Assembly (NCBI GenBank): GCA_016931785.1
Contig: JAFGED010000202.1
Coordinates: 1-49,649 of the forward strand
Source of the DNA: Anaerolineae bacterium
Lineage (GTDB): Bacteria > Chloroflexota > Anaerolineae > B4-G1
Direction: 5' to 3'
Length of the DNA stretch: 49,649 nt
This document shows, in pieces, positions 8,450 through 47,638 of this stretch. How positions within the stretch are numbered: position 1 is the stretch's first letter; each line of letters opens with the position of its first letter. A model generated the notes under the pieces. It did no database searches. It had not been told where the DNA came from and saw only the letters and a list, made by a program, of their open reading frames with translations. The position numbers and the translations under genes are program-made.

Positions 8450-8469
8450 GTGTTCACTCCTGCGTTCGT

Positions 8470-9551: not shown

Positions 9552-9552
9552 A

Positions 9553-11232
9553 TCAAGGCCAACAAGGCCGATCTTGCTCGACTAGATCAGCCACGTAGGC
9601 CAACACGGCCTCTGTTTCTCCCTCAGCAGGTTCTCCCCGCTCAAGCAGTAGAATGCGCCCAGCCCAGTACCGCACACGAAAGTCGCCAGTGCCCATAATC
9701 TGTGTAACGATCTCCCCGTAGCTTGCGCGCGGGTCTGGAGCCGGGACGACCCTGCAATCCACCAAGTCAAATAACACATAGTCCACCATCTCCAGGTGAT
9801 CCAGCCGAAGCGGGGCAGGATACTCCAAAGCCACCAACACGCGGCGGTCAGCGAGTTGCGGCCCCAAGCGATTGACCGTGGCGACACCTGCATCGGGAGG
9901 AATCTGCGCCAGCGCCTCCGCAATCTGATCGTGGTGGGGTTCAGGCTGGAACATCCCCTCTCGAGCGTAGAGACAGATCGGGTTGAGGGCAATGTTGATA
10001 CCCAGCGTACCAAACACCATAAACGCAAGCCCCAAACGGTAGAGGCGGAGTCTGCCAGGGCGATGCAGTCGCCGCAAACCCTCAGACACCGCCAAGAAAA
10101 ACCAGGGGATCAGCACCGCAGGGTACTGGTAACCGACAGAGTGGAACGCCGGGCGCTCCCCCAGCAAGAGATAGGCCAGTGAAGGCAACGCCACTAGAAA
10201 GGAAGTGAAGCTCCCCGGCGCTTTGCGCCGGGACTTCCTAAGGGAAAAGCCCTCGGGGGCTGCCGCCCCCAAATCTCTCGCCTTGCCATTCACCCCCACC
10301 TCTTGCGGTGGGGTTCTCTGGCTTTTCCCCGTAGACCCCAGAAAAGGAAGAAATCCCAAGGGTAGAAACAGGTGAATCAAGTAGAGGGCAATCGTCTCAA
10401 AAGACGCGCTTCCTATGGGCTGCGCGGTTCCTCCTTGATCAGAGCTTACTCCTCCCAACAGCTTGATCCATAGCTGCCAGAAGCGATACGGCTGCCCCTC
10501 GTTGAAGGTGGGGATAATCAAGCCAAAACACAAAATCGCCCAGACTCCAGCCAGGATCACGAGCCCCAGTCCAACCCGCCGTCTCTTTCCCCACAAAAGA
10601 TTGACCACTCCCCACACTGCTATGGGGATCACCAACTCCTCCTTGACAGACAGGGCCAGCAACACGGCAACCCAGAAAAGGGCCGTTCGCTCTTCATGCA
10701 AAGCCCAATAAGCCAAAAGTATCAGAGGGACGGAAAAAGCGACAGGATGAAAATCCACCAGGTTGAGAAAGCCCAACGCAGGATAGGCCAGATAGCAACA
10801 AGAGACGATGAACGCCGCCCACGCATCCCCCGTCTGCTTGTGGACGACACAATAGAGCGGGAAAGCCGCCAGACCGAGAGCCACGCTCTGCAGGATGAGC
10901 AGCAAACGCGGATCCGGCCACACCCGATAGAGGGGCGCCAAGAAAAGCAGGATCGGGCGAACGTGGTTGCCCAAATAGCTGCCGATGAGCCCTGCGTTTG
11001 TCGCCCGATCTATGGAGGTCTCGAACCAGCGCCCGTGGGCCGTGTTCCAGGTCACCTGGGCCATGATGCCCAGGTCGAAAGTTGAGGAATAGAAATTGTT
11101 GTGCCTGACGACAGACAGCGCGCTGAAAGCAACCACATAAACCAGAATCAGCGGCAAAAGCAAGAGCCAAACTCGAGCTTTATGGCGAAACACAGCACCC
11201 CTTTGCGATGAATCTACTAACCACAAAACCAT
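9553..11232 (-). CDS. DUF2079-like GT-C membrane protein carrying a 42-aa in-frame element insertion
   Basis: TFDLGIMAQVTWNT, GNHVRPIL, DFHPV, KEE; paralog of 32941..34473; start uncertain. Confidence 0.85.
   Translation of the reverse strand: MVLWLVDSSQRGAVFRHKARVWLLLLPLILVYVVAFSALSVVRHNNFYSSTFDLGIMAQVTWNTAHGRWFETSIDRATNAGLIGSYLGNHVRPILLFLAPLYRVWPDPRLLLILQSVALGLAAFPLYCVVHKQTGDAWAAFIVSCCYLAYPALGFLNLVDFHPVAFSVPLILLAYWALHEERTALFWVAVLLALSVKEELVIPIAVWGVVNLLWGKRRRVGLGLVILAGVWAILCFGLIIPTFNEGQPYRFWQLWIKLLGGVSSDQGGTAQPIGSASFETIALYLIHLFLPLGFLPFLGSTGKSQRTPPQEVGVNGKARDLGAAAPEGFSLRKSRRKAPGSFTSFLVALPSLAYLLLGERPAFHSVGYQYPAVLIPWFFLAVSEGLRRLHRPGRLRLYRLGLAFMVFGTLGINIALNPICLYAREGMFQPEPHHDQIAEALAQIPPDAGVATVNRLGPQLADRRVLVALEYPAPLRLDHLEMVDYVLFDLVDCRVVPAPDPRASYGEIVTQIMGTGDFRVRYWAGRILLLERGEPAEGETEAVLAYVADLVEQDRPCWP
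10205..10330 (-). mobile_element. IS200/IS605-like mini-element, copy B (126 bp), in frame within a CDS
   Basis: TCTAC|GGGGAAAAGC...GAGCTTCAC; removing it restores gap-free alignment with the paralog. Confidence 0.88.
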
Positions 11233-11261
11233 CGCGCTTGATTATCAGCCTTTAACAAATC

Positions 11262-11399
11262 CTAACAAGCTTTCTCAATCCTCATCCCCAGGTCGAAAGT
11301 AAACGAGTAGAAATTGTCGTGCTTCAAGACGGACAACGCACTGAAAGTCACGATGTAGATCAAAACCAGTGTCCAGAGCCAGCCCGGCGATTTGTTCAT
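11262..11399 (-). pseudogene. Truncated N-terminal fragment (45 aa) of a third DUF2079-like gene
   Basis: MNKSPGWLWTLVLIYIVTFSALSVLKHDNFYSFTFDLG|MRIEKAC*; matches the N-termini of 9553..11232 and 32941..34473 up to DLG. Confidence 0.85.
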
Positions 11400-11404
11400 A
11401 CGAC

Positions 11405-12973
11405 TCAATCGATACGGCGGTAGACTTCCTGTTCGTCAATAACGGTCTCTAAAGCGTACTTTCCCTCCAGTTCCGTGTAAAGCCAATCAGCCCTTGGAAT
11501 GTTATTGCTCTCTCCAAGAATAACGTACTTTGTTCGCGGTGAAAAGATACGTTGATACGGCCCAGTAGCATCCGCGTAAATAGGCCATAGTACATCAATA
11601 GCACAGCGACGATCCGCCAGGTAGTAAATCTGAGTGTCCCCAGACCAATAATAGATGTAGTCAGATGGCGAGGTGCGCGCCGCTACATAGTCGGCCAATT
11701 CTTGCACACGTATCAAGCCCTTTCCACCAATTGCCCCTTTAAGCACAAAGTCATGCCATGTGTCTGGGCCAAATTTATACGCAAGATAGCAATAGTAGTA
11801 GTTATAGTTCAACACCACGCTAAAGGACAACACCAACACCACCGACAGCATCAGAAACGCCAGCACAGCGAAGCGGGTCACCCGCGAGCGGCTTTTTCCA
11901 ACACGATACAACCTGAGCAAGAACCACGCTGCTAGCAGCACCAGGGGTGGAAGTACGAGCAAATAGTAATGGGAAAAGTAAGTGCGCGTAATACCTGCCT
12001 CTAGAAAAGAAATCGCATACCACGCCACGACGTAGAATTCAGTCAAACACTGCCTATACTGCTTATAACGCCCAAGAAGCAAATTAGCCGCCGCCATGAC
12101 CGAGCCGGTGATGCTGAATATCACAAGCGCGACGTTGTTTTCGGACAAGCCGACAAAGGGGAAAAGAAACATATACTCAGGCCCAGGGGAAGCGGCCGTG
12201 CGAAAACTGACATACCCCCTACCCAGCGTGAATACCGCCAGAAACCGGGGCAACAGCCCCACCAATCCAAAATAGATGACGACGGGCAACAGGCCAATCA
12301 CGGCCCCTCCCGCCACCCATAGACCACGCACCACGGTCTCCCGCCACACAGCCCGCTTCGACCTAGCCAACCAAAACTCTACAAACAACACGACGCCAGC
12401 CAGCGCCCAAGGCGAAACATAGACCGCCTTGAATAGGAAGGCTGCCGAACCCAACATGCCCACAAACATAAATTTCCAAGCGGCGGCACGCCGAGCTATC
12501 AGACGTAGCAGGACCAAGACTCCCGCAATTCGCGGCAGGTTGGCAAACAGCTCTATCTCGGCTGTATGTCCAAGCAGATGCACGTGAGAGGAAAGCAAAG
12601 CATAAACACCCGCTGCCAACGCCCCTGCGATCTTGTGCCCTGTCATCAAAAGTCCCAACCGATACAACAAATACACCGTGACGATGGTCCACAAAAGCAG
12701 AAAGAACTTGACAGACCACAGACTGTCCCCAAACAGAGAAAAGGCCAATGCATAGAGATAGTATGTAGCCGGCATGTGGTGGTTGGAATGATGTGTGCCG
12801 TAAAGGGGATCGCCCCGCACGATTTGCCGAGCGTGATAAGCAATCGCCCCGCTATCATTGTCAAACGGCTGTTCCAAAGACGGCGCTCTCAGCAAGGCGA
12901 CCAACAACGCCAACGCAACGACGATGATCCATTCCCTGCTATATCCTAACCTTCCGATCAATTTCTTTATCAT
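11405..12973 (-). CDS. ArnT/PMT-like (GT39/GT83-type) membrane glycosyltransferase
   Basis: TM1 followed by FDNDSGAIAY, ELFANLP, many TMs, HYYLL, soluble C-terminal domain. Confidence 0.75.
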   Translation of the reverse strand: MIKKLIGRLGYSREWIIVVALALLVALLRAPSLEQPFDNDSGAIAYHARQIVRGDPLYGTHHSNHHMPATYYLYALAFSLFGDSLWSVKFFLLLWTIVTVYLLYRLGLLMTGHKIAGALAAGVYALLSSHVHLLGHTAEIELFANLPRIAGVLVLLRLIARRAAAWKFMFVGMLGSAAFLFKAVYVSPWALAGVVLFVEFWLARSKRAVWRETVVRGLWVAGGAVIGLLPVVIYFGLVGLLPRFLAVFTLGRGYVSFRTAASPGPEYMFLFPFVGLSENNVALVIFSITGSVMAAANLLLGRYKQYRQCLTEFYVVAWYAISFLEAGITRTYFSHYYLLVLPPLVLLAAWFLLRLYRVGKSRSRVTRFAVLAFLMLSVVLVLSFSVVLNYNYYYCYLAYKFGPDTWHDFVLKGAIGGKGLIRVQELADYVAARTSPSDYIYYWSGDTQIYYLADRRCAIDVLWPIYADATGPYQRIFSPRTKYVILGESNNIPRADWLYTELEGKYALETVIDEQEVYRRID

Positions 12974-14028
12974 TTTCCCTCAGACTTGAGTGACTCGCCC
13001 ACAGACACATCCGGTGCAAAGCCCCCATGCCCGCGCCAGCTGTTCCGGTTGCGCCAGGACAAATTGATGATCTCCATACCGGCTTCATGAAACCATGCCT
13101 CGAACTCCTCTCGCCGTATGTAGAACGCCACCGGTGCGACGAGGTGATCGAAGACAACGTGATGGTTATGTCGAAACCCAAACTGGCCCAGCCAAGCCAA
13201 ATAATCGTTGTATGGCAAAAGCCTGTAAAGCCAATTATCCCTGCCTAAAGCACGCAACGGACGATAGATCAGCCGGACGATCGGATGCAATACGACAGTG
13301 ATAAACCAGGAAAGGGCATAGAGTACGCGGCGGGGCAAACGAGAGGTGAGGAAAACGCGAATCGGGTTGACCACGTTCACTAACCACCCATTCCTCTCAC
13401 GCCCATACACCCACACGAAAATCGTAGCGCCACGTCTCAAATGCCTGACGAGGGCATCGAACCCGGCTTGCGGGCTATCCAAGTGGTGCAGCACACCAAT
13501 GCTGAACGCAAAATCCACTTGAGCGTCTCGGCCAAGTCGCAGCGGCAACCGGTGAATATCCCCTTGGATAACGTGAACGTTGGAGAAATCCCGCGCGTTC
13601 TCACGCGCAGCCTCTACAGCATCACTCGCGTCAACGGCCAATACTTTCGCCCCGAACGCGCTGCTCACAAGTGAAAAGCGTCCCATCCCGCAGCCAGCGT
13701 CCAGAACCACTTTCCCATCAAAGAACTCGGGCTGTATGGGGTGGATCCAATCCAGGAACTGCGCTCGATAAGTCGCCAAATCGTGCAGCTCCCTAAACTT
13801 TTGCCACTCCCACCCAAAGGCGTCCGCCGTCTGCACATTCTTACCGCTCAATGGCTCATCAACGGTTACAAACCGTGGGATGCCACGCAAGATCGGATAA
13901 GACTTCTCACAACGGGAGCAGCGCAATGAACCCGTTTCTATCTCGTCATCCCTCTCAACTTCCACGTGGCATTCGAATGAGGCATAGCATTCCGGGCAGA
14001 CGATATACTCAAGCAGGGCTCGCTTCAC
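12970..14028 (-). CDS. SAM-dependent methyltransferase with N-terminal Trm112-like zinc-ribbon domain
   Basis: CPEC...G.LRCSRC...YPILRGIPRF; VLDAGCGMGRF; FSIGVLHH. Confidence 0.88.
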   Translation of the reverse strand: MKRALLEYIVCPECYASFECHVEVERDDEIETGSLRCSRCEKSYPILRGIPRFVTVDEPLSGKNVQTADAFGWEWQKFRELHDLATYRAQFLDWIHPIQPEFFDGKVVLDAGCGMGRFSLVSSAFGAKVLAVDASDAVEAARENARDFSNVHVIQGDIHRLPLRLGRDAQVDFAFSIGVLHHLDSPQAGFDALVRHLRRGATIFVWVYGRERNGWLVNVVNPIRVFLTSRLPRRVLYALSWFITVVLHPIVRLIYRPLRALGRDNWLYRLLPYNDYLAWLGQFGFRHNHHVVFDHLVAPVAFYIRREEFEAWFHEAGMEIINLSWRNRNSWRGHGGFAPDVSVGESLKSEGK

Positions 14029-14070
14029 GTTCTTCCTCTCCCATTGTGCACGTGTGCTTTTGGACTTGCG

Positions 14071-15648
14071 CTACTGCTTTCCCGCATACACATAAACAGG
14101 CCATTGCGCTTCCCCAATCCTTCGTTCCATTTCGTAATTGGCTTCCAAATATTCAAACACCTCTTCCATTTCTGGAAGTATGCCATAGTTCTCGTCAACC
14201 AAGCGCCAGTTACTCCTTTCGACAGAACTAATCGGTGGGATTAACTCGTTAGTCGGCGAGGTGTCAATGATCAAAACGGGCTTGTTTGTCACAATGTCAT
14301 CAAGAAACTCGCTAATCAAGGCCCCATTTTGATAACCAGATGTATACAAGGGGTATTGATAGACAAAGCGCGTAGGCGAGCGCCTGGAAGCCACAAAGTT
14401 GACGCCCGTTTCAGCTCCCCAAACCAAGACATAGTCTTGTGCAGTCGTACAACTCTTGACATATTGTGCTGTTTGATATGTCATAGTCTCACGATTGTTG
14501 GGTAACTCGATCATAATGCAAACGATCTCGAGCAGAAACGGCAAGATAAACACCAAGCTGAGCACGGAGAACACAAAGTTACTAAAGCTCGACCTCTTCC
14601 CTCGAGAAAAAGGATGCCTCGCAAAGCTGCTGCCTAAAAGCGCGTCAAGGATATATCGAAAGAAGCCCGCTAACACCCCAAGTATAGGCAAGCATGCTAT
14701 ATAGTAATGCCTATAAAGCCTGCCAGAAAAGGAACTCGACAAGAATTCAATGAAGAGACCGACGAGCAAAACATCTAGCAGAACTTTTTGTGCCCCGCCT
14801 ATTTTCCTGCCGCGCCATATGTAAAAAGCGACGAGAACATAGACCAAAAATGCCATGGCAGATAATCCAGGTAAGTAAATCAACCCCTCTATGGCAGCCC
14901 TGAATCTATCGGAGAGCGTCGTGCTAGCGTATGCAAAGTTATAGCGGAACACACTGTCCCAAAAATAACCCAGCGCGCCGTGAAGGGCAAAATAACCGAC
15001 GACCACAAGAATAACGCTCGACGCTCCTAGGGCTATCGCGGCGAAAGTCACGAACAAGTTGCGCCATCGACGTTCAAAAACCCGCGTCCACAACAGATAA
15101 ATCCCTACCACTAGCTGTATACCCAATAGATTAGGCTTCAAGAGGAAAGAGACGGCGGCCATTATCCCGATCAGGAATCCCCGCCAGGAGTAGCACCCCT
15201 GTTTCTCCGAAAGCCAGAATAAATAGAGCGTAGCAAATTGAAACGGCAATGCGAACTCTTCCGTGAAATTTCCCCCGCCCAAGACCAAGACCAAACTCGT
15301 CATCCACGCTATTGTCCCGAAAATCGCCGGCCCGAATCCAAGTACCTTTCTCATGAGAACGAATCCCAGCATGCCGGCCAGGTACAGTGACAAAAACTCC
15401 AAAAACCACACTCCCCAAAGAGAACCTCCTCCAATAAGCAACCCAAGCGCGTCGATGTAAAAGATAGCAGGCGGCTTGTGATCCCAGATGTCACGATAGG
15501 GAATTTCCCCCTCCAGGATTCGATCCGCTGTATAGAGAAATGCCCCTGAATCGCGACCCGGCATCACACCAGGTAGAGGCATACTTGGAGCCAAGACACC
15601 GGCGACCAGCACACCTAACATCACAAATAATATGGCTTGTCTGCCCAT
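14071..15648 (-). CDS. ArnT/PMT-like membrane glycosyltransferase
   Basis: GRDSGAFLY...PYRDIWDHKPP, TEEFALP, KPN, YRHYY; polytopic. Confidence 0.78.
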   Translation of the reverse strand: MGRQAILFVMLGVLVAGVLAPSMPLPGVMPGRDSGAFLYTADRILEGEIPYRDIWDHKPPAIFYIDALGLLIGGGSLWGVWFLEFLSLYLAGMLGFVLMRKVLGFGPAIFGTIAWMTSLVLVLGGGNFTEEFALPFQFATLYLFWLSEKQGCYSWRGFLIGIMAAVSFLLKPNLLGIQLVVGIYLLWTRVFERRWRNLFVTFAAIALGASSVILVVVGYFALHGALGYFWDSVFRYNFAYASTTLSDRFRAAIEGLIYLPGLSAMAFLVYVLVAFYIWRGRKIGGAQKVLLDVLLVGLFIEFLSSSFSGRLYRHYYIACLPILGVLAGFFRYILDALLGSSFARHPFSRGKRSSFSNFVFSVLSLVFILPFLLEIVCIMIELPNNRETMTYQTAQYVKSCTTAQDYVLVWGAETGVNFVASRRSPTRFVYQYPLYTSGYQNGALISEFLDDIVTNKPVLIIDTSPTNELIPPISSVERSNWRLVDENYGILPEMEEVFEYLEANYEMERRIGEAQWPVYVYAGKQ

Positions 15649-15731
15649 TTCTCGCTCAAACTAAGCCGCCACCCCGCCCTAATCATCATCTTCACAGCTC
15701 AGGCGCGGCCTACCCCTATCATCCGACCAAT

Positions 15732-17624: not shown

Positions 17625-17703
17625 GTGCACCACCTACATTTCAAGCACTGCCACATCAAATATGATACCAGAAACAATAGAATTGCCAAACTTGCCCCTT
17701 GTA

Positions 17704-23478: not shown

Positions 23479-23479
23479 G

Positions 23480-24988: not shown

Positions 24989-25008
24989 GATCCTACACCT
25001 CCAGGCCG

Positions 25009-28169: not shown

Positions 28170-28171
28170 TG

Positions 28172-30220: not shown

Positions 30221-30290
30221 CGGGACGCCTCCTCTGGGCGGAGCAGACGCAGAGATAACCACCCGCAATTGGCGTTCCAGCTACCGATTC

Positions 30291-37582: not shown

Positions 37583-37677
37583 AGGGGCATTTCAGCCGTG
37601 CTTGACAAGAGTATGGCCTTTGGGCCCCAGATTTGTGAATCGAACGGCATCTTGCCCCCAGGCTGAAATGCGCCCCT
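37583..37677. repeat. Inverted-repeat module (GGGGC(GC)ATTT family), copy 3
   Basis: AGGGGCATTTCAGCC...GGCTGAAATGCGCCCCT; the reverse complement resembles the starts of 5624 and 9268. Confidence 0.6.
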
Positions 37678-37737
37678 TTGCACAGCCAATGGCGATTGCG
37701 CACCACTATAGCACAGATTTTACCTCTTGAGAAGCAT

Positions 37738-37833
37738 AGGGGCGTTTCGCTCATGGAGCGAATACGGCTCTGCAGGATTCGGCGCCTGGTTTACACGGTA
37801 CCACGCCTGTGCAGCTATCTGAAACGCGCCCCT
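37738..37833. repeat. Inverted-repeat module, copy 4
   Basis: AGGGGCGTTTC...GAAACGCGCCCCT; similar length (96 vs 95 bp) and end structure to copy 3. Confidence 0.55.
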
Positions 37834-37862
37834 GAAGAATAGGTCGGCTACGGCAGACGCAT

Positions 37863-39485: not shown

Positions 39486-41626
39486 GGCGATCTGCCTCTC
39501 TTCCCTGCGACCAAGAGTCCCAGCACCACGGCCACTGCCACCACCGTCAGTACGATGCCGACCGTCAAGCCGGACGGCCAGTAGGCAAACGTCACTTGAT
39601 GCCGCCCCTCCTCCAAATAAACGCCTCGCAGAGTTCCTGCGACGCGCACCAGCCCCGCGCCTTTCCCATCCACTCGCACCTGCCAGTCGGGGTCGTACAC
39701 CTCGCTCAGCACCAACAGCCCCGGCCCTTCCGCCTCCACCCGGATGCGATTGGGCGTCCATTCGATGACACGCACCTCAATCACACCTGGACTTTTCAAC
39801 GCATCCTCGCTTTCGACGACAAAAGCCCGCGGGAACGCGCGTTCGTTTCGATAGAGATACACCCCGCCCTTTTCCCCAATCGGCACCAAATCGCGTGCCT
39901 CGATCGGGTAGGCCGCCGCCACGTAGCGCACGTTCAAAAGCCCCAGCAGGCGCGGATCGGGCGCCACGTCCCGGTGGGCCAGCAGCATGTCCTCCCCTTG
40001 AGGCACATCTGGGAATGCGGGCACCGTGACGCTGTAACCCGGCAGGTCGACGCCCGTAGCGGCGCGCATGAAATCGACATAGTCGGCCAACTGGAACGGA
40101 TCGACGCCATCGACCATCTCGACGCCGCAAACCGCGCCGGTGTGCTGCGGGATCGAGTAACTGGGAGAGTAGACGCGGAAGCGGCCAGGCTGCTCCGCCA
40201 GCCACGCCGCAGCAGCCTCTCCTTCGGCCGACACCTCGTCCGCCGGTCGCACCCGGTAGAGGGTAGACCCGACGTAGAACAGATCCAGCAACGCCAAAGA
40301 GAACGTCAAGCCGGCAAAGAGCGCCGGCCTCAATCGCCCGCCTATCCGCAGCGCAACCAACACCCCCGCCAAGGGCCAGAGCACCGCCGCCGCCACGACG
40401 TTAGCAGGCAGCCGCAGGACAACGCCCCCAATTCCTCCGGCCAACGCCGCGCCGGCCAGCCCAACCGCCACGCGACCCGTCCAACCACGCCTGAGAACCC
40501 CGGTTTTTTGGAAAAACCGGGGTTCTTCCAATGCGGTCAGTCCCCACGCAGCCAACACCGCCGCCGCCAGCACGACCAGGAACCAGGCGCGCGCCGGTCC
40601 GCGCAGCCATCCCAGCGGTGGCAGCACGCGATACAGCAGACCGTAGATAGGCGTGTTGGTGCCCAGCGAGTAGATGGCCGCGACCAGCGCCAGACCACCC
40701 CACCACCATCGCTCCCGACCCCGCCACAGCCCCAAGCCGACCAGCGCCAGCAGCAGCCCCGCCACCCCCAGGTAGGTCATCGTCTCCTGGAACCCCCCGT
40801 GATCCGCCACCAGCAAGCCCACCAGATAGCTCGGCGGGAGGGAAGCGATGCCGCTCTCCTCCAGCGTCAATCCACCGCGATTCAGCCGTCCCGCCACCGC
40901 CGCCAAAGGCAGCACCTGCACGGCCACCAATGCCCCCACAAGCGACGCAGTGCCAATCGCTGCCGCCATTTGCCATTTGCGATTTGAGATTTGAGATTTG
41001 AGATTTACTGCCCAATATCCCATCGCTGCCAGCCCGCCGTAGAACCCCAGACGCACGTCGGCCAGGATCAGCATCGCCGCCGTCGCCGCGGTCATCGCCA
41101 CGTCACCCGGGCCGCCACGCCTCGCCAGCCGCCGCGACGCCCAGAGCACCCACGGCAGCCACGCCCAGGCACAGTACAATCCCACGTGCCCCGAGGCCAG
41201 ATGGGCCAGCGCCTTGGGCGTGAGCATGATGACGAGGGCCGCCAACAGACCGCCGGCCTGAGAGGCCCCAAGCGACCGCGCCAACCGATACCCTCCCCAT
41301 CCGGCCCAGGCGGTGTGTAGGACAAAGAGCAGGTTGAAGGCCAGTGTCAGCGGGAGAATCAGGAGCAGCAGATTAGGCGGATACCAGAGGCCAGAAAGCG
41401 GATTAGCAGCGAAAGGCTCCCCGCCCAGAATCAGGTGACGCCACAATGGAACCTGCCCCCAGGTCGCCAGGGAATGGCGGATAAAGAATGCGTTGGGCCA
41501 GTGGGTTATCGTCAAGTCAGAGTAATCGCCGGCGGGACGATAGAGGAAACCGCTGGGGGTAAACCACAGTCGCCAGAAAAGGGCTGCCGCCGGTACCAGC
41601 AGCAACAAATAACCCCATCGCCGCAT
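39482..41626 (-). CDS. YfhO-like GT-C membrane protein
   Basis: YSDL...GQVPLW...GGEPFAANP...YPPN; C-terminal LVLSEVYDPDW...G..RGV.L..G.H.V.F.Y.P plus terminal TM. Confidence 0.85.
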   Translation of the reverse strand: MRRWGYLLLLVPAAALFWRLWFTPSGFLYRPAGDYSDLTITHWPNAFFIRHSLATWGQVPLWRHLILGGEPFAANPLSGLWYPPNLLLLILPLTLAFNLLFVLHTAWAGWGGYRLARSLGASQAGGLLAALVIMLTPKALAHLASGHVGLYCAWAWLPWVLWASRRLARRGGPGDVAMTAATAAMLILADVRLGFYGGLAAMGYWAVNLKSQISNRKWQMAAAIGTASLVGALVAVQVLPLAAVAGRLNRGGLTLEESGIASLPPSYLVGLLVADHGGFQETMTYLGVAGLLLALVGLGLWRGRERWWWGGLALVAAIYSLGTNTPIYGLLYRVLPPLGWLRGPARAWFLVVLAAAVLAAWGLTALEEPRFFQKTGVLRRGWTGRVAVGLAGAALAGGIGGVVLRLPANVVAAAVLWPLAGVLVALRIGGRLRPALFAGLTFSLALLDLFYVGSTLYRVRPADEVSAEGEAAAAWLAEQPGRFRVYSPSYSIPQHTGAVCGVEMVDGVDPFQLADYVDFMRAATGVDLPGYSVTVPAFPDVPQGEDMLLAHRDVAPDPRLLGLLNVRYVAAAYPIEARDLVPIGEKGGVYLYRNERAFPRAFVVESEDALKSPGVIEVRVIEWTPNRIRVEAEGPGLLVLSEVYDPDWQVRVDGKGAGLVRVAGTLRGVYLEEGRHQVTFAYWPSGLTVGIVLTVVAVAVVLGLLVAGKRGRSP
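40494..40526. repeat. 33-bp palindrome (REP-like) inside a CDS
   Basis: agaaccccggttttt-tgg-aaaaaccggggttct, 15-bp perfect stem. Confidence 0.8.
40965..41006. repeat. Heptamer tandem repeat (6 x 7 = 42 bp) inside a CDS
   Basis: gccattt gccattt gcgattt gagattt gagattt gagattt. Confidence 0.9.
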
Positions 41627-41664
41627 CAATATCCGCCTCAAAACCACGCTAGGAAAAGCCAACA

Positions 41665-43275
41665 CTATCTTTGAGAAGACAGCGCTACCACCGTGATGTC
41701 ATTCGTGCCCTCGAACGTCTTGACCACGGTAGCGCTCAGACCGGCCTCGCTGAATTTGGCCCGATGGAAGAATATGGACCACTCGACGAAATAATCTACG
41801 TCCTCGTTTGCCAGATAGATGGCAGTATCTCCACTCACATTGTAAGGTATTGCAGCGTAGTTGACGACGCCATCCAGATTGACGACCTGACGGTCAGAAT
41901 AGTAACCAAGTATTCCAGACTGAAAAGCGCCGATACGGGCATCTACAGGCGTGTTGCCTTTGAGCCAAGCAGCAGCATTGTACTGCGTCTTTGTAAACCA
42001 ATCCGCCGGATGAGCCAGCAGCGGGTTGATATCCGCCGGCAATGAGAAAGGCAGAGTCACCACAAAACCTATGCACAACAGTGCATAGACAATCGAACCC
42101 AACGGGCGATTTGCAAGGAAAACATTTTGAAGACTGCTATAAATCGCCTCTACCCACACGCTTAGCAAAATCAAGCCAAGCATACCCAGAGGATAAAAGT
42201 AACGTGGCCAGTTCCACATCGTGAATTGATAAAAAACGTACGCCCCTAACAACCCGACCCCATAGAACCACAGAAATGCCGAATCCTTTATAAAGGCCAA
42301 TACTTCAAACTGTATCTTTCCAGTCCTGTAAGCTAACAAATACACGCCCACCAAGGCCAAGACAGAGATGACAAAATACCTGAAAGGCATCATCGCAGAC
42401 CAAGGCAAGAACGACGTAACGGTCCTCAACTGAAGATACGGAATAAGGCCAAAGAGATGCGTGATAAATATGTTATCGCCCGCAAAGTGCGCTCTAGAAT
42501 AGAGCCTGGTTGCAGCGCCGCTATCAAATGCCAATCGACCTGTGTGGCCCCAACTTGCAGCAAACCATGGAAGCTGAGCCACAAATACGACGATCCCAAC
42601 AAGCGCTACTCCCCATAAAACTCGAACCCGCGTCCTATCGTGACGCAGATACAATACAAACCTCAAGATCAGGTCAGCCAGCAACATGGCCACAAAAACC
42701 AGCGAATCAACACGCACCAGCACCAAGAGCCCAAGCAAGAGACCCAACCCAAAAGCAATCCAAGACCGCCTCTGCGTCGACGTGTCAGGGTCGATCAAGG
42801 CAAATCGCCAGGATTCGAGATACAGGGTCACTATCAGGATCAGGAGGAACGCCTGAATAGGCGTTTCCAAACCGTTGACACCGCTAATGATATACGGAGA
42901 CAGACTCCAAGCCATTAAACTCAGCAAAGCGCCACGAAATCCTATCCGAGAATCAATGAGGCGAAATAAAAGCCAACCCGTGGCGACGTTCAAAATCGCT
43001 TCCATCACGAGAGAGAGCGCTGGCACCAGGTGATCGCTTCCCGGGAGCCCAGCATAGAAGGGAACCATGATAAAGACATACAACGGCTGGAATCCATTGG
43101 TCACGTGAATGCCATCGTGAGTCCACCCCTTACCCAGAGCGATATTGCGCGCGATGCCCAAGGAATAAAAGGAGTCATCAAGCCAAAGCACCTCCGGTTT
43201 CACCAACACGATGCCAATCCTGACGACCAATCCAACGATCGACACTCCAAAAGCCAACTTCCGTCGCAAAGTCAT
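41665..43275 (-). CDS. GT-C-type membrane glycosyltransferase (lower GC)
   Basis: Start MTLRRKL at an ATGA overlap; LDDSFY...ARN, TNGFQPL, NGLET, RVD, GYYS...VVNLDGVVN. Confidence 0.8.
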   Translation of the reverse strand: MTLRRKLAFGVSIVGLVVRIGIVLVKPEVLWLDDSFYSLGIARNIALGKGWTHDGIHVTNGFQPLYVFIMVPFYAGLPGSDHLVPALSLVMEAILNVATGWLLFRLIDSRIGFRGALLSLMAWSLSPYIISGVNGLETPIQAFLLILIVTLYLESWRFALIDPDTSTQRRSWIAFGLGLLLGLLVLVRVDSLVFVAMLLADLILRFVLYLRHDRTRVRVLWGVALVGIVVFVAQLPWFAASWGHTGRLAFDSGAATRLYSRAHFAGDNIFITHLFGLIPYLQLRTVTSFLPWSAMMPFRYFVISVLALVGVYLLAYRTGKIQFEVLAFIKDSAFLWFYGVGLLGAYVFYQFTMWNWPRYFYPLGMLGLILLSVWVEAIYSSLQNVFLANRPLGSIVYALLCIGFVVTLPFSLPADINPLLAHPADWFTKTQYNAAAWLKGNTPVDARIGAFQSGILGYYSDRQVVNLDGVVNYAAIPYNVSGDTAIYLANEDVDYFVEWSIFFHRAKFSEAGLSATVVKTFEGTNDITVVALSSQR

Positions 43276-44891
43276 GACAGCTCCTTCCACAGCCTTGAGG
43301 CCGCCCAGCCTGCCAGTATCGCCAGCGCGCCCCACACGACCACGAGCAGGCCCGGCGGCGCGCCCAACAACAGCCAAATGACCAACCACAGGTTGAGTGC
43401 ATTGAACGAAAGCAGCCCGGCCGTCTCGGTCAACACGTCCCAAGGGACGAGTCCCTCGTCGACGTTCCGCGCCGCCTGGGCGCGCGCCGCATCCGCCACC
43501 GCCGCACGCAGCGCGGGATCCCGCATCAGCACCGAGACCTCCAACAGGCTGCGCCACTGGTTCCACAGCGGCGAGTCGGCGGGATGGTAGAGCATGCGCA
43601 GCGTGTAATCCGTCGGCGAGGCGGAGCGATTATAGAGCACGTTGAGCGTCCGCGCAGGCTGCACCAGAAAGGCGGGCACCTGCACCACGAACCCCAGCAC
43701 CACGATCAATGCCAGCGCCAACCGCCCCCAGGCTCGATGCGGAGATCGCTGGAACCACTCTGCGGCCGGCAGAATCAACAGAGGCAAGATCGGCAGGATC
43801 AGGCGCGGTCCCCACGCCCCGCTGCCGTGCCAATGATTGTAAACTGAATGAACCAGCAGGTAAAGGCCCGCCACGCCGCCCAGGAGAATCATCGCGCGCG
43901 GCCTGCGCCGCATCAGAGGCACAAATCCCGCCAGTCCCAGCAACACCGGCGGGCAGTACCACAGCAACCCCTTGCCGGGACTCCAGAGCAACCCCGCCAG
44001 TCCCACCCAGGGCGGCACGCCCCAGGCGGCGGTGCGATAGCCGGTATCGAAGGGGGAACCGAACCTGGCGACGTTGTAACACCCCACCCCGGCCAGCGCC
44101 AGCGCCAGCGGCGAGGCCAGAAGCGTCACCGCCCGCCAGCGTCCCTCCTTGCGCAAAGCGGCAAAGACGAGAAAGGCAGGCGCAGCGACCGCGGCCACCG
44201 GCTTGACCAACACCGCAACCCCCAGCGCCGCCCCACAGTTGATCCACGCGCTCGCGGCCCCCTCGCTCCCGGCCAACGCCGCCCAAACGGCCACAAGCAA
44301 GGCCAGCGCCACCAGCGGCTCGCTGAAAAATGTCTCGCCATAGACCAAAAGGGGGGTCGCCAAACCCGCCACCAAAGCGACGCCCACCGCCGCGCCCCCG
44401 CCGTAGCCCAGCCGCCGGGCCAGGCAGTAAAGCACGCCACCCGCCCCGGCTAGCGCCACGGGGTTGAGCAGCATGACCGCCGCCCGCGTGACGAAACCCT
44501 CCGTCCCCCAACCTGTCAGGCGGTGAATGCCCCGCCCCAACAGGTAAAACGGCACCGCCAGCAGCGACTGCCCCACGCCGTACTGGGCATAGTAGCGGCC
44601 GTCGCTCCCCCACGCCCCATAGGGACCGCCGCCCCGCAGCTTTTCGGGAGGGATCGGCTCGCCAAAGGGGTCAAGCACCACGGCGTCCGGCGATGGCGGT
44701 GGGATGGCAAAACCACGCCCCTCCACGAAGGAGCGAGTCGCCTGGTAGATCGTCTCACCGTCTCCACTGCCGATGCGCAGCGAGGTCAGAAGCAAATAGA
44801 TCAACAACAAGAACAGCCCGACGAGACAGGCCGTCCGGCGATCATCCCCCACTACACCTTCGCCGTGTCGAACACCGCAAGAGTTGGTCAT
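43272..44891 (-). CDS. Lipid-carrier-dependent (GT-C) membrane glycosyltransferase
   Basis: SGDGE, YGVGQS, FSEP, VKP, SPGKGL, WGPRL; start uncertain (44891 or 44852). Confidence 0.78.
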   Translation of the reverse strand: MTNSCGVRHGEGVVGDDRRTACLVGLFLLLIYLLLTSLRIGSGDGETIYQATRSFVEGRGFAIPPPSPDAVVLDPFGEPIPPEKLRGGGPYGAWGSDGRYYAQYGVGQSLLAVPFYLLGRGIHRLTGWGTEGFVTRAAVMLLNPVALAGAGGVLYCLARRLGYGGGAAVGVALVAGLATPLLVYGETFFSEPLVALALLVAVWAALAGSEGAASAWINCGAALGVAVLVKPVAAVAAPAFLVFAALRKEGRWRAVTLLASPLALALAGVGCYNVARFGSPFDTGYRTAAWGVPPWVGLAGLLWSPGKGLLWYCPPVLLGLAGFVPLMRRRPRAMILLGGVAGLYLLVHSVYNHWHGSGAWGPRLILPILPLLILPAAEWFQRSPHRAWGRLALALIVVLGFVVQVPAFLVQPARTLNVLYNRSASPTDYTLRMLYHPADSPLWNQWRSLLEVSVLMRDPALRAAVADAARAQAARNVDEGLVPWDVLTETAGLLSFNALNLWLVIWLLLGAPPGLLVVVWGALAILAGWAASRLWKELS

Positions 44892-44912
44892 TGTGCCATC
44901 CACGTGTATAAT
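44884..44912 (+). promoter_or_regulatory. Putative sigma70 promoter in the divergent junction
   Basis: TTGGTC, 17-bp spacer, TATAAT; AGGAGA RBS before the GTG at 44930. Confidence 0.6.
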
Positions 44913-44929
44913 CATATCAGGAGAGACAA

Positions 44930-46522
44930 GTGACGGAACGTGAAACACGTCGCAATCGCCTCGATTGGCTGCTGCTCGCCGGGCTGGTGATCATCGCCCT
45001 GCTGGCCCGCCTCGTGCCCGGCGAGCGCACGGTGGACGACGCCTACATCACCTTCCGCTACGCCCGTAACGCCGTCGAGGGAGCCGGATTCGTCTACAAT
45101 GTCCCTTCGACAGGCTCAGGGCATGGCGAACGCGTGCTGGGCACGACGACGCCGCTCTACACGCTGCTAATGGCGGGGCTCTCGCTGCTGACCGGATCCC
45201 GCGACTTTCCCGCCATAGCGCTGATCGCCAACGCGCTGGCAGGCGGCTTCTCCGTCGGGATGCTCTATGGCCTGGGCAAGCGATTCGCCGGCCACCCTTT
45301 CCCCGCCGCGACCGTGGCGCTCCTGTGGGCCCTGGCCCCTTTTAGCGTCTCCTTCGCCGTGGGCGGGATGGAGACCGACCTGACCATCGGCCTGCTCATC
45401 GCCGCCGCCTACACTTATCTGGCGGAGCGTCCCCGCGCGATGGCCGTCCTATCAGCGCTGGCGCTCCTGGCCCGCCCAGACACGGCCATCTTGTTAGGAC
45501 CGCTCTGGCTCGGCCTCATCCTGGCAGAGCGCCGCATCCCCTGGCGAGAGGGACTGATCGGGCTGGCCATCCTGGCCCCCTGGCTGATCTTTGGCACGCT
45601 GTATTTCGGCAGCCCGCTCACCAACTCCGTCTCCGCCAAATCCGTCGTCTACCTCCTCCCTCCCGGATCAGCCTTCCTGCGCCTGCTGCAACACTACGCC
45701 ACGCCCTTCATCGAACAGAACGTCCTGCCGCCTGCAGGCATCTTTGTCGCCCTCGTCGTGTACTGCGGCCTATGCGCCCTAGGCTCTATCAACGCGTTCC
45801 ACCGCGACCGCAAGGCATGGCCGCTGATCGCCTACCCCTTCGTCTACTTTGGGGTCTTTGCCCTGGCCAATCCCCTCATCTTTCGCTGGTACCTCTCCCC
45901 GCCGGTGCCGTTCTACTTTCTGCTGATCGTCACCGGCGTGTGGACGGTGAATCAGGATATTGGCAAATTGGTAAACTGGGAATCGCGGCGCTTTCCCATT
46001 TATCTATTTGCCAATTTACCATTCACCATCTTCACCGTCGCCGCGCTCGCCCTCACGCTCAACGCCTGGACGCTGCATCCCGACCACGGCCCCGACCGGC
46101 CCGCCCCGGAGATGGCCTGGTTCGGCGGCGAGATCGTCTACCGCCAGATCGCGCTCGACCTCAAGGACCAACTTGGGCCAGGCGATGTGGTCGCCATCGC
46201 CGATATCGGCGCCTTTGGCTACTACAGCGAGGCGTATATCCTGGACCCGGTCGGCCTGATCTCGCCGGACTCTAGCCGGTATTACCCCGTCCCGCCCGAG
46301 CAGCACGCCAACGCCCTGGCGGTATCCACGCAGTTGATCCTGGATCGGCAGCCCAGCTACGTGATCATGCTGGAAGCCTACATCCGGCACACCCTGCTCG
46401 AATCGGACGCGTTCAGTGTCCAGTACGAGCTACTCGATACCATCGAGACCGACATCCTGGAGAGCTCGGCCTTTATGGTCTTTTGCCGATCCGACCTAGA
46501 TGTGGACGAAAAAGGCCAGTAG
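44930..46522 (+). CDS. GT-C-type membrane glycosyltransferase (arabinosyl/mannosyltransferase-like)
   Basis: VDDAYITFRYARN...GERVLGTTTPLY, GGMET, ARPD, FRWY, DIGAFGYYS...D..GL. Confidence 0.82.
   Translation: MTERETRRNRLDWLLLAGLVIIALLARLVPGERTVDDAYITFRYARNAVEGAGFVYNVPSTGSGHGERVLGTTTPLYTLLMAGLSLLTGSRDFPAIALIANALAGGFSVGMLYGLGKRFAGHPFPAATVALLWALAPFSVSFAVGGMETDLTIGLLIAAAYTYLAERPRAMAVLSALALLARPDTAILLGPLWLGLILAERRIPWREGLIGLAILAPWLIFGTLYFGSPLTNSVSAKSVVYLLPPGSAFLRLLQHYATPFIEQNVLPPAGIFVALVVYCGLCALGSINAFHRDRKAWPLIAYPFVYFGVFALANPLIFRWYLSPPVPFYFLLIVTGVWTVNQDIGKLVNWESRRFPIYLFANLPFTIFTVAALALTLNAWTLHPDHGPDRPAPEMAWFGGEIVYRQIALDLKDQLGPGDVVAIADIGAFGYYSEAYILDPVGLISPDSSRYYPVPPEQHANALAVSTQLILDRQPSYVIMLEAYIRHTLLESDAFSVQYELLDTIETDILESSAFMVFCRSDLDVDEKGQ
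45103..45121. repeat. REP-like imperfect palindrome CCCTTCGACAGGCTCAGGG inside a CDS
   Basis: Encodes PSTGSG between FVYN and GERV. Confidence 0.6.
45959..46023. repeat. AT-rich inverted octamer-repeat insertion inside a CDS
   Basis: attggcaa attggtaa actgggaa ... tttcccat ttatctat ttgccaat ttaccatt. Confidence 0.6.
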
Positions 46523-47638
46523 CGCCAGAGAGAGAATCCACAACAGGCTGTAGTTGAGCACGCGCCCGCTGCGCCGCCATCCGCCGTACAGCACCATACT
46601 GTGCACCAGCCCGATCGAGAGACGCGTCGCGCCCGAAAGCTCGCGGTACGTCGAGTAGGGCAGCACGATCATCAGCAGAGCGTTCCCCAGCAGCATGAAC
46701 GCCAGCGGGTGCCACCGGCGCCGCCACAGCTCGCGCGCGCCCAGAATGACGGCAGCCAGCGACGGCACGACGGCCAGCGGCCCCATGATCAGCAGCCTGC
46801 CCAGCAGCAGATTCACGTCATCGCTGCCAGGCGCCATCAAGCCCCCAAAGGGGATCAGCGAGAAACTGGTCGTCGCCGCCCCGCCCGAGGCCAGGCCCAC
46901 CGATCCGAACCAACGATACAACAAAAGCCTGTAGGCGATAAAGGGCACGCCGTTCACCAGCAGCAGCCTTCCCACCTGCCTCCACTTTTTCCCCAGCACG
47001 TATGCCGCCAGGAACGCCCCGACGGCCAGTAGCGCCGTCTCTTTGGCAAACACGGCCAGCATCAGCATCGCGGCGCCGAGCCAGCTCCGCTCCTGCACGT
47101 AGAACCACATCCCCAGCAGGATCAGCGCGCAGGAGAGCGGCTCGTTGGTATCGAGGCGCAGCGCGATCAGCAAGCCGGCGTAGAGCCCGCACGGCAATGC
47201 GTACCAGGCGCTGACGCCATACCACGTCAGTATCCTTCCCGCGGCATAGGCGCACAAGCCAATAGAGACAAGGTTGACCAAGATGAGCGTGCAGGGGATC
47301 CAACCGGGTTGCCCCAATGCCGCCCAACGGGCCAGGAGGGGGTACAGCACACGCTGGTAGCGATAGGCCGGGTTATCCGTGTAGCGCCAGCCTTCCAGCG
47401 GGTCCAGAGCGATCTGATAGCTGTACTGGCCGTCGTACCCCCACTCGCCATGGGGGTCGCCTTCGGCAAAATAAGAGCCGAGGAGCACGAACCGCATCGG
47501 GTCCCATTCCTCGGCTCCCAGCGCGATCAGGACGTAGCACACGCACACGACAGCCGTCACCAGCGTCACGCCCCAAACGCCGCGCAGCCGTCTCAATGCG
47601 CCCGCTATGTCGTCCCAAGGTCGGCTGTTCCTTTGCAT
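46496..47638 (-). CDS. GT-C-like membrane protein (resembles the AZOBR_p60025 cell-surface glycopolymer family)
   Basis: GYDGQYSYQIALDP...YRYQRVLYPLLA, NEP, AKET; converges on and overlaps 44930..46522 by 27 bp. Confidence 0.75.
   Translation of the reverse strand: MQRNSRPWDDIAGALRRLRGVWGVTLVTAVVCVCYVLIALGAEEWDPMRFVLLGSYFAEGDPHGEWGYDGQYSYQIALDPLEGWRYTDNPAYRYQRVLYPLLARWAALGQPGWIPCTLILVNLVSIGLCAYAAGRILTWYGVSAWYALPCGLYAGLLIALRLDTNEPLSCALILLGMWFYVQERSWLGAAMLMLAVFAKETALLAVGAFLAAYVLGKKWRQVGRLLLVNGVPFIAYRLLLYRWFGSVGLASGGAATTSFSLIPFGGLMAPGSDDVNLLLGRLLIMGPLAVVPSLAAVILGARELWRRRWHPLAFMLLGNALLMIVLPYSTYRELSGATRLSIGLVHSMVLYGGWRRSGRVLNYSLLWILSLALLAFFVHI

Follow-up and report, generated by a model that had tools for sequence, protein, structure and literature searches.

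What does a bacterium do with 22 membrane proteins of glycosyltransferase type that are encoded side by side, and do they serve a single product? The question is raised by a contig of 49,649 bp (JAFGED010000202.1; C172 in our numbering) from an uncultured filamentous-type bacterium of the class Anaerolineae. The contig was analysed in its entirety and is referred to here as the window; it is part of a 4.8-Mb metagenome-assembled genome (MAG) of 481 contigs, with 90% completeness and 5% contamination. Positions 9553–47638 carry 24 genes, of which 22 encode polytopic membrane proteins (g01–g22) and two encode soluble enzymes. Judging by their sequences, most of the membrane proteins appear to be glycosyltransferases of the GT-C type, much of the row is conserved in gene order across the class, and candidate enzymes for charging its lipid-linked sugar donors are encoded elsewhere in the genome. 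On balance we lean, with modest confidence, towards a role in building or decorating a wall glycopolymer outside the cytoplasm, much as arabinogalactan is assembled in mycobacteria.

Membrane proteins of the row and their GT-C families

A sequence-only reading of the window had described the interval as 22 polytopic membrane open reading frames (ORFs) lying almost back to back. The 22 ORFs are borne out by hydropathy, with 6–11 hydrophobic segments in each (Kyte-Doolittle, 19-residue window, threshold 1.6), and all 22 of the acidic motifs that had been quoted were found, in the order given (Table 1). The motif had been placed usually right after the first transmembrane segment (TM1), and 20 of the 22 do lie 1–25 residues past it; the exceptions are g11, where three extra N-terminal TMs come ahead of the motif, and g18, where TM1 was missed at the threshold used. 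The N-termini are rich in lysine and arginine (0–9 K/R before TM1, and 12 in g11 before the TM preceding the motif), and together with the hydrophobic segments give all 22 proteins the polytopic, N-inside arrangement of GT-C enzymes.

Close packing was found at 15 of the 23 gene junctions, 11 of them 4-bp overlaps and four more measuring −13, −1, +1 or +2, figures that depend on our choice of the start codon nearest to the upstream stop. The packing breaks down at gaps of 172 bp (g01/g02) and 424 bp (g16/g17), and at g21, which lies on the + strand (44930–46522), divergent from g20 and convergent with g22. Gaps of 42, 83 and 79 bp flank the two soluble enzyme genes, and 378 bp separate g01 from the response regulator (RR) gene beside the row. 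The soluble enzymes, an S-adenosylmethionine (SAM)-dependent methyltransferase and an AsnB-family amidotransferase, also mean that the row does not consist solely of GT-C genes, as had been supposed. Two counts of promoter-like sites in the gaps, 6 (5.0 expected) and 8 (3.7 ± 2.2 expected), are not significant against shuffled sequence, and the count of terminator-like sites is inflated by the T-rich coding strand.

In the sections of PMC12041299 drawn on here, GT-C enzymes are defined by an acidic residue that is conserved at the tip of juxtamembrane helix 1, within the first loop outside the membrane. The acidic residue of the row was judged in families with at least ten homologues (g01–g03, g09, g14, g17, g19, g20 and g22 have fewer than ten). 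Its conservation exceeds chance, since it is invariant or nearly so in every such family but one: g05 (37/38), g06 (19/19), g07 (12/14), g08 (44/44), g11 (23/23), g13 (44/44), g15/g16 (61/61) and g21 (26/26), with g04, g10 and g12 in Table 1. The lone exception is g18 (19/26).

Sequence ties to GT-C families were found for 19 of the 22 proteins. In the hidden Markov model (HMM) searches that the sequence-only reading had proposed, 13 pass Pfam cut-offs, namely those for PMT_2 (g02, g03, g04, g08, g11, g13, g17 and g20), GT87 (g10 and g12), DUF2079 (g01 and g14) and YfhO (g18); we take DUF2079, YfhO and GT87 to be members of the GT-C clan. Six more (g05, g06, g07, g09, g19 and g21) are tied to GT-C by weaker, convergent evidence from phmmer, NCBIfam, hhalign and the PDB. 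The claim that every membrane protein is of GT-C type, drawn from many subfamilies, holds for these 19, which are PMT_2/ArnT-like, GT87, DUF2079, YfhO, LA_3751-like or AftB-like; it does not extend by sequence to g15/g16, for which no link was found, and the link of g22 is weak. A GT-C type is supported by sequence for most proteins of the row.

Profile comparisons add detail to these assignments. The g04/g08/g13 group has its best PDB match in ArnT (5ezm; E=0.009 over 350 positions), g06 is linked to the g21 family by local hhalign (99.7%), the neighbours of g07 in the Atlas carry PMT_2 (score 0.96), and g18, which has a PgfM1/2-like C-terminus, reaches 94–95% against PMT_2 families in local hhalign. 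Controls with reversed profiles gave at most 33%, save g07 against its own reverse at 87%, so that hhalign values near 90% are unsafe. PDB sequence searches gave no match for the profiles of g15/g16 (A1), g07 (A2), g18 (A4) and the GT87-like group (A6), or for g14.

When the g21 family profile (A3) is aligned with AftB (PDB 9dlf), its invariant D36-D37, E148 and R182 fall on D61-D62, E172 and R221 of AftB, numbers that were counted by hand in the alignment; R372 of AftB lies outside the aligned stretch. According to the passages of the AftB paper used here, D62, R221 and R372 are essential by mutagenesis, D62 being the catalytic residue of the DD motif, E172 contacts the donor sugar and R221 is phosphate-binding.

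The unannotated g15/g16 family

The tandem genes g15 and g16 (72% amino acid identity, dN/dS 0.21) belong to a family that is named 'hypothetical protein' in every naming source (best 120 of 1,878 hits). None of 35 members matched Pfam, and neither NCBIfam nor the PDB gave a match. The family is very large, with 40,296 representative clusters at E≤1e-3 and 15,296 at E≤1e-30, and is found in Acidobacteriota too. It is low-copy, with 1–3 copies in 72 of the 121 Chloroflexota genomes sampled; this and all later tallies of 121 genomes include one unpublished genome, G068.

Could several members of the row, above all g15/g16 and g22, be something other than glycosyltransferases? They would then be polytopic envelope proteins of another sort, for example transporters, scaffolds or Wzy/O-antigen-ligase-like polymerases or ligases, and would share no more than the topology and an acidic loop. 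The missing Pfam, NCBIfam and PDB sequence matches of g15/g16 are consistent with this, as is their low copy number, unlike that of the expanded PMT_2 genes, and the family name of g22 says just 'glycopolymer formation'. A sequence link to GT-C through g07 (93% with g15) and g08 (70% with g15), obtained by local hhalign ('-M first'), was rejected as unconfirmed. A second hhalign run gave 17% for A1 against A2 and 0.8% for A1 against the PMT_2-group alignment (A5), hence no sequence homology is claimed for g15/g16.

Architecture and gene context argue in the opposite direction. Directly past TM1 the family has the invariant residues D54, D56, W58 and W59, and its averaged topology has ~11 TM helices, N-in and C-out, with a domain of 130 residues outside the membrane at the C-terminus. 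In the AlphaFold2 model of g15 (pLDDT 91.9, pTM 0.90), TM1 at 32–48 is followed by a helix at 55–70 that starts at D54/D56, then by ~11 TM helices and a C-terminal alpha/beta domain. With its D-x-D at the tip of the first helix after TM1 and the C-terminal domain predicted to lie outside the membrane, this confident model has a GT-C-like architecture. Neighbours of g15/g16 in the Atlas, at a score of 0.92, carry PMT_2, Dpy19 or STT3, a lead only.

The best clue from gene context comes from two genomes of different genera (G033 and G078), where a g15/g16-family gene lies downstream, on the same strand, of a homologue of decaprenyl-phosphate phosphoribosyltransferase (DPPR synthase) and a GT2 gene (Table 1). 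That GT2 matches the solved dolichol-phosphate-mannose synthase (DPMS; PDB 5mlz) at E=6e-31 in G033 and 6e-27 in G078. Model and context together support a GT-C-like role for g15/g16, and we hold it distinctly improbable that these members of the row are not glycosyltransferases.

Conservation, insertion and exchange of genes

The nearest public loci to the window are all from MAGs of Anaerolineae or Anaerolineales. A count of GT-C clusters in relatives, which the sequence-only reading had recommended, showed that 25 of the 38 loci that surround g15/g16 homologues and span at least 18 kb have five or more GT-C-like ORFs (median 6, maximum 13). Close relatives share the recurring order ABC-RsmG-g22-g21 (opposite strand)-g20-g18-g17-g16-g12-g11-g10-g08-g07-g06, and distant relatives a shorter form, g21 (opposite)-g16-(g12/g10/g08/g11)-g06-g21-like-RR-HK, in which HK is a histidine kinase gene. 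The opposite orientation of g21 is kept in other genomes. The RR-HK pair follows the row in 9 of 14 distant loci inspected and in the congener G003, while the RsmG-ABC flank is also found in L003 and G001. Synteny across Anaerolineae covers the core of the row, g06–g22, between its flanks RR-HK and RsmG-ABC.

In G003 the order is HK-RR-g06-g07-g08, with g06 adjoining the RR gene and nothing between them, hence the segment at ~9.2–20.3 kb (g01–g05, the methyltransferase and AsnB) is an 11-kb insertion. Up to AsnB, its GC content at third codon positions (GC3) is 0.55–0.66 vs 0.72–0.85 for most of the core, with g04 and g05 at 0.79–0.80. Of 150 other genomes of the class, a single one has a homologue of g02, and a homologue of AsnB, 77% identical, adjoins a related row in L030. 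The backbone of the core shows 70–81% nucleotide identity between congeners, in which g13 and g14 have no nucleotide-level counterpart, and G001 has other genes between g11 and g12. The GC3 of g14 (0.64) and of g19 (0.58), vs 0.72–0.85 in their neighbours, suggests that these two are cassettes acquired separately. Furthermore, the gap between g01 and g02 holds a stretch (11284–11382) that is 74% identical to the 5' end of g01, including TFDLG; it is the remnant of a further DUF2079 gene and points to earlier rearrangement. The history that we propose is of an old core, g06–g22, kept between the two-component system and rsmG, with cassettes swapped between close relatives and an 11-kb block added.

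The same features could mark the row as an evolutionary by-product, a recombination-prone site that collects GT-C paralogues and cassettes, many of them redundant, and that has no joint function. The 11-kb insertion absent from G003, the rarity of g02 in the class, the DUF2079 relic and the repeat elements at cassette borders are all as expected of such a site, and so are the low-GC3 genes (g02, g03, g14 and g19) among high-GC3 ones, the tandem g15/g16 and the paralogue groups g01/g14 and g04/g08/g13. The copies have been maintained, however, with dN/dS of 0.17–0.26 in seven orthologue pairs and in both paralogue pairs, hence the genes of the row are real genes under purifying selection. At phmmer E≤1e-5, g01–g22 fall into 16 sequence families, which is diversity and not simple amplification, and the order of the core and its flanks is conserved. 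A by-product without joint function is improbable in our view.

A change in base composition within the row also raises the question of whether part of it is an assembly artefact, with related strains or different organisms joined into a chimera. The MAG consists of 481 contigs with 5% contamination, and GC drops from ~0.65 to ~0.50–0.55 left of 18 kb. In the probable source run (X1), where depth is based on 56% of the run and cover gaps are not taken as absence, summed contig depth is 0–13 at 10.3–23.7 kb vs ~150 at 24.0–28.3 kb; this step near 24 kb could be due to unread contigs, strain heterogeneity or a chimeric join inside g08. Against a join, an independent hot-spring run holds exact pieces of 200–250 nt from both sides of the GC shift (17386–17625 and 17675–17921, and also at 9692, 14152 and 27849). 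The ORFs are intact across the suspect points, the order g08-g07-g06 is the same in other genomes and both flanks match congeners. We regard a chimera as very improbable.

Donor synthases, ligases and further GT-C genes in the genome

When the 35 main ORFs of the window were scanned with Pfam, no GT-A or GT-B enzyme, nucleotide-sugar gene, flippase or polyprenyl-phosphate-sugar synthase turned up, in agreement with the sequence-only reading, which had advised a search for GT2 polyprenyl-phosphate-sugar synthases elsewhere. Such candidates were located: the genome has 23 GT2 matches, and 7 of 10 sampled most resemble polyprenyl-phosphate sugar synthases (dolichyl-P hexose transferase, AglJ, PpgS, ArnC and PgfS), all below equivalog cut-offs. 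An ArnB/ArnC/ArnT-like set on contig C79 has the order GT4-PMT_2-ArnC-like-GNAT-DegT aminotransferase-methyltransferase-PMT_2. On C381, a g07-like gene is followed by a spermine-synthase-like membrane protein, a second g07-like gene, g18-like and g22-like genes, a DPM-like GT2 and a methyltransferase. A further ORF (G000:C349:77–964) passes two NCBIfam equivalog cut-offs for decaprenyl-phosphate phosphoribosyltransferase, a model that matched in 84 of the 121 Chloroflexota genomes (61 above cut-off) and in 1 of 14 controls, Corynebacterium glutamicum only. There are also six LytR-CpsA-Psr (LCP) ligase genes in the genome.

The row had been taken for a dedicated locus, and comparison with the rest of the genome and with relatives showed that it is not unique. 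The same genome has 53 PMT_2 matches, and HMMs of the 22 families found at least 84 non-overlapping GT-C-like ORFs on 35 contigs, a count that leaves out g05, masked by an overlapping frame. A second row (G000:C177:2848–39050) consists of 13 same-strand PMT/PMT_2/YfhO-like genes of 730–1185 aa, with true PMT (PF02366) matches and a secreted beta-helix/PKD protein mid-row, and two of the six LCP ligase genes lie a few kb downstream of it (43087–45545). A third row, on C309, has seven GT-C-like genes. All 30 relatives searched have 10–60 PMT_2 matches (29–60 within the same taxonomic family), 118 of the 121 sampled Chloroflexota genomes have matches when no more than 27 candidates are scored in each, and smaller syntenic rows occur in many Anaerolineae. 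With its 16 sequence families, the row in the window appears to be the most diverse example found so far of a lineage-wide trait. That no equivalent had been described was confirmed within the literature searched, from which subscription journals were absent and which held no description of GT-C arrays or GT-C expansion in Chloroflexota or Anaerolineae; the part of one paper cited here lists GT83 among the CAZymes abundant in Anaerolineae.

Genes of this kind could also act as independent decorators, each GT-C with an acceptor of its own, for example a secreted or S-layer-type protein (as for PMT/TMTC O-mannosyltransferases), a lipid or another polymer, with clustering a matter of shared regulation or donors. 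An Asp-Glu pair after TM1 is typical of protein O-mannosyltransferases, and four members of the row (g04, g08, g13 and g17) carry one. The true PMT matches and the secreted protein of the second row point the same way, as does the varying cassette content between congeners, and three-component systems are single-step modifiers according to the portion of PMC11127046 used here. Set against this, the order of ~10 families is kept across deep branches of Anaerolineae, which a shared product explains more easily, and the row itself contains no gene for a candidate acceptor protein. Independent decoration is unlikely, in our estimate, though by no means negligible.

A proposed pathway outside the membrane

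In our proposal, the locus is a modular 'GT-C island' that the class Anaerolineae has conserved, and its enzymes would act on the outside of the cytoplasmic membrane. Sugars would be loaded on polyprenyl phosphate in the cytoplasm by GT2 and UbiA-type enzymes whose genes lie elsewhere, with hexose donors made by the DPM1/ArnC-like GT2s and a pentofuranose donor by the decaprenyl-phosphate phosphoribosyltransferase, and the donors would be flipped by the products of genes elsewhere in the genome. Each GT-C would transfer one sugar from a polyprenyl-phosphate sugar onto a growing or finished envelope glycan. The product would most likely be a wall-bound heteropolysaccharide, made in the way that Emb, Aft, Mpt and PimE enzymes build arabinogalactan and lipoarabinomannan, and LCP enzymes may then join the polymer to peptidoglycan. 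The methyltransferase and amidotransferase of the inserted block could modify sugars or precursors. We count the embedded AsnB, which is of the exopolysaccharide-associated type, in favour of this pathway; its strongest match is TIGR03108, the amidotransferase of the XrtA/PEP-CTERM system (E=2e-186, below cut-off), and TIGR01536 is matched above cut-off. From all of this we infer donors, acceptor, sequential action and product, and with them the assembly line for one product that the sequence-only reading had envisaged. A shared product is favoured by the conserved gene order, and diversification of that product by the variable cassettes.

Several observations weigh against the proposed pathway. 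No donor synthase, flippase, priming transferase or ligase is encoded among the 35 main ORFs of the window, and the link to the donors is genome-wide rather than local. Nor is the row the one operon that had been suggested: with g21 on the + strand and gaps of 424, 172, 83 and 79 bp, it divides on these grounds into at least four transcription units, and a single pathway can therefore only be suggested. For flippases, the genome gave a single match, of GtrA type. A DprE1-like ALO domain was looked for without success in this 90%-complete genome, with DprE2 not searched for, so that an arabinofuranose donor is unsupported and the pentofuranose may be ribose. Given at least 84 GT-C-like ORFs in the genome, the neighbourhood may partly reflect tandem expansion over shared function. 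The step in depth near 24 kb and the second hhalign run, which contradicts the local run for g15/g16, belong on the same side. Furthermore, jackhmmer searches that started from g15, g07, g22 and g09 and ran against every ORF in the genome and the loci converged with the families unbridged, and g22 reaches GT-C families only in local hhalign at 85–87%, a weak link because the reversed-profile control yields ~87% by chance.

A bolder version of the proposal is tentative, and we hold it to be less likely than not. Anaerolineae, and with them much of Chloroflexota, would make an arabinogalactan-like wall heteropolysaccharide almost wholly outside the membrane, with dozens of GT-Cs and with polyprenyl-phosphate hexose and pentofuranose as donors. 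The row would be the core line, g15/g16 would be a new GT-C family that takes a key low-copy step, and cassette swaps would give surface diversity between species.

The locus, the large complement of GT-C-like ORFs around it and the widespread phosphoribosyltransferase provide a concrete genetic handle on the poorly understood envelope of Chloroflexota. If the proposed pathway is true, extracytoplasmic polysaccharide assembly by GT-C enzymes would not be peculiar to Corynebacteriales, and its use here would be a second large-scale one, older or convergent. The very large unannotated g15/g16 family would gain a probable role, and the genes would form a catalogue of diverse GT-C enzymes for glyco-engineering.

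Repeats, neighbouring genes and coordinates

A hairpin-rich repeat recurs in the window (Table 1) and in ~48 places in the genome, 8 of them within long open frames (fold z=-4.3), and its depth in the source sample is in the thousands. It resembles elements that insert in frame into genes, e.g. Rickettsia palindromic elements. One copy (9425–9537) lies at the left border of the inserted block. Another (10205–10335) lies in frame within g01, giving ~45 residues absent from its paralogue g14. With ATG at 26958, the first ~87 residues of g09 are translated repeat element, in the frame used within g01, GTG at 26697 being an alternative start. Weak phmmer matches of g01 to short ORFs on C58, C241, C248, C113 and C436 were set aside as most likely translated repeat; C58 holds a copy. 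A second repeat, with a perfect 32-nt palindrome (window 2119–2229 and 49562–49649), occurs in ~311 places on 223 contigs. The contig end falls within a copy of it, and it is probably a major reason why the assembly is fragmented.

Contigs of a metatranscriptome library of the source study (X5) match the window at 9433–9638, 9773–9976, 12510–12944, 20894–21059 and 26816–26993, exactly or with one change. These matches weakly suggest expression of g01, g02 and g06; DNA carry-over is possible. An LGFP-repeat protein (E=5e-5) and a BNR/Asp-box (Ycf48/sortilin-like) protein are encoded nearby (window 1029–2036 and 5902–6849) and may be envelope proteins; in Corynebacteriales, LGFP repeats serve in wall anchoring. 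No family was assigned to the ORF at 2285–3139 in the Pfam scans, and an Rfam scan of the window gave no families and a search for tRNAs none.

Table 1 Coordinates of the row, its flanks and repeats in the window, and of two operon-like sets in other genomes
Feature	Position	Strand	Evidence and remarks
DegS-like HisKA_3 histidine kinase	7382-8449	-	Pfam; conserved flank
LuxR/NarL-type response regulator	8470-9174	-	Pfam; conserved flank
g01, DUF2079 membrane protein, TFDLG	9553-11232	-	Pfam DUF2079 211 bits; paralogue of g14, 56% aa identity
g02, PMT_2-type GT-C, DNDSG	11405-12973	-	PMT_2 27.9 bits; GC3 0.60; rare accessory gene
SAM-dependent methyltransferase, soluble, N-terminal Trm112-like zinc ribbon	12970-14028	-	Pfam Methyltransf_11/25 and Trm112p; NCBIfam
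g03, PMT_2-type GT-C, RDSG	14071-15648	-	PMT_2 40.6 bits; GC3 0.55
AsnB-family glutamine amidotransferase, exopolysaccharide-associated type, soluble	15732-17624	-	Pfam Asn_synthase and GATase_7
g04, PMT_2-type GT-C, DE motif WFDEA	17704-19158	-	PMT_2 48.7 bits; D32/E33 46/46
g05, GT87-like, RFDFY	19155-20318	-	phmmer E=9e-20 to g10; Pfam GT87 only at E=0.95
g06, GT-C related to AftB-like g21 family, MDPAY; first core gene	20315-21883	-	PMT_2 21 bits, below cut-off
g07, PMT_2-like GT-C, no Pfam hit, PVDYH	21880-23478	-	hhalign A2 vs PMT_2-group alignment A5: 96.2%, 400 columns
g08, PMT_2-type GT-C, DE motif WYDEA	23480-25012	-	PMT_2 74.5 bits
g09, LA_3751/LA_3752-family putative glycosyltransferase, SGDAG	25009-26958	-	NCBIfam E=5e-37, below cut-off; Glyco_transf_22 E=0.006
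g10, GT87 family, NDFAS	26955-28169	-	Pfam GT87 60.9 bits; D40 38/39
g11, PMT_2-type GT-C, three extra N-terminal TMs, WDGLVY	28172-30268	-	PMT_2 40 bits
g12, GT87 family, WEDY	30291-31439	-	Pfam GT87 41.3 bits; D31 30/30
g13, PMT_2-type GT-C, DE motif WADEA	31436-32953	-	PMT_2 62.9 bits
g14, DUF2079 membrane protein, TLDLG	32941-34473	-	Pfam 223.5 bits; GC3 0.64
g15, g16, tandem paralogues, large unannotated family, D-x-D-x-W-W	34470-35951, 35948-37438	-	Anchor gene of conserved row
g17, PMT_2-type GT-C, DE motif TWDEP	37863-39485	-	PMT_2 52.2 bits
g18, YfhO-like membrane protein, YSDL	39482-41665	-	Pfam YfhO 45.7 bits, C-terminal 68 residues only
g19, AftB-like GT-C, LDDSFY, low-GC cassette (suggested)	41665-43275	-	Local hhalign 99.8% to g21 family; PMT_2 25.9 bits; GC3 0.58
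g20, PMT_2-type GT-C, SGDGE	43272-44915	-	PMT_2 31.8 bits; LA_3751-like E=7e-11
g21, AftB-like GT-C, VDDAY	44930-46522	+	Family profile A3 to PDB 9dlf (AftB), E=1e-17
g22, AZOBR_p60025-family 'cell surface glycopolymer formation' membrane protein, GYDGQ	46496-47638	-	NCBIfam 170 bits, cut-off 150
RsmG/GidB	47687-48409	-	Pfam; conserved flank
MalK-like ABC ATPase	48412-49560	-	Pfam; conserved flank
Hairpin-rich repeat, ~110-230 nt	9425-9537, 10205-10335, 26702-26934; partial 6970-7020	.	Repeat search
Operon-like set, G033	L107 (G033:C27) 4587-9163	same strand	DPPR synthase, PHP-phosphoesterase-like ORF (G033 only), DPMS-like GT2, g15/g16-family gene
Operon-like set, G078	L108 (G078:C3) 4345-8930	same strand	DPPR synthase, DPMS-like GT2, g15/g16-family gene

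Comparison with known systems

A peptidoglycan-polysaccharide complex is reported for Herpetosiphon, to go by a reference title. In the sections of PMC13319060 cited here, Chloroflexota are without a lipopolysaccharide (LPS) pathway or BAM genes yet multilayered, the layers being 'suggested' to be polysaccharide or protein; since the LPS pathway is lacking, lipid A is very unlikely as an acceptor. As for ArnT (5ezm) and the PMT_2 family (PF13231), eight members of the row pass the PMT_2 cut-off, and the g04/g08/g13 profile reaches ArnT at no better than the E=0.009 given above.

In eukaryotes, the ER-lumenal enzymes ALG3, 9, 12, 6, 8 and 10 and PIG-M, -V and -B build a glycan stepwise from dolichyl-P-Man or dolichyl-P-Glc at the non-cytoplasmic face. 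The pathway proposed for the row resembles this, and likeness in sequence consists of weak, marginal matches to ALG9-like, ALG3 and PIG-M families (E 0.006–0.07; PIG-M 9e-4), and the eukaryotic genes, unlike those of the row, are unclustered.

The closest genetic analogue is found in the three-component systems (GtrA/GtrB/Gtr-type GT-C, ArnC/ArnT, CsbB/GtcA/YfhO and the pentofuranose system of Citrobacter). In these, according to the parts of PMC11127046 and PMC8035078 used here, the GT-C enzyme takes a flipped polyprenyl-phosphate monosaccharide from a GT2 or UbiA-type synthase. One GT-C gene stands beside a synthase and a flippase and adds a single side-chain sugar, whereas the window has 22 GT-C-type genes, and it falls outside the definition because neither synthase nor flippase is encoded inside it. 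Sets of the three-component kind exist elsewhere in the genome, as the ArnB/ArnC/ArnT-like genes on C79 and the DPM-like GT2 with paralogues of g07, g18 and g22 on C381.

The closest functional analogue is the mycobacterial and corynebacterial assembly of arabinogalactan and lipoarabinomannan, with EmbA/B/C, AftA-D, MptA-C and PimE, the donors decaprenyl-P-arabinose and polyprenyl-P-mannose, and the ligase Lcp1. The two differ in phylum and in layout, the mycobacterial genes being largely dispersed and the 22 genes here standing in one row. No Emb-type proteins were identified and no DprE1-like domain was found in the Anaerolineae genome, and the g15/g16, DUF2079, YfhO-like and AZOBR_p60025 families of the row have no mycobacterial counterpart. 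What they share are many GT-Cs outside the membrane, which on our reading of the Anaerolineae row would likewise work on one wall polymer, AftB-like members that keep the DD pair, the Glu and the Arg, and GT87 members of PimE type. Both also have a decaprenyl-phosphate phosphoribosyltransferase, DPM-like GT2s and LCP ligases, which in the Anaerolineae host are encoded elsewhere in its genome.

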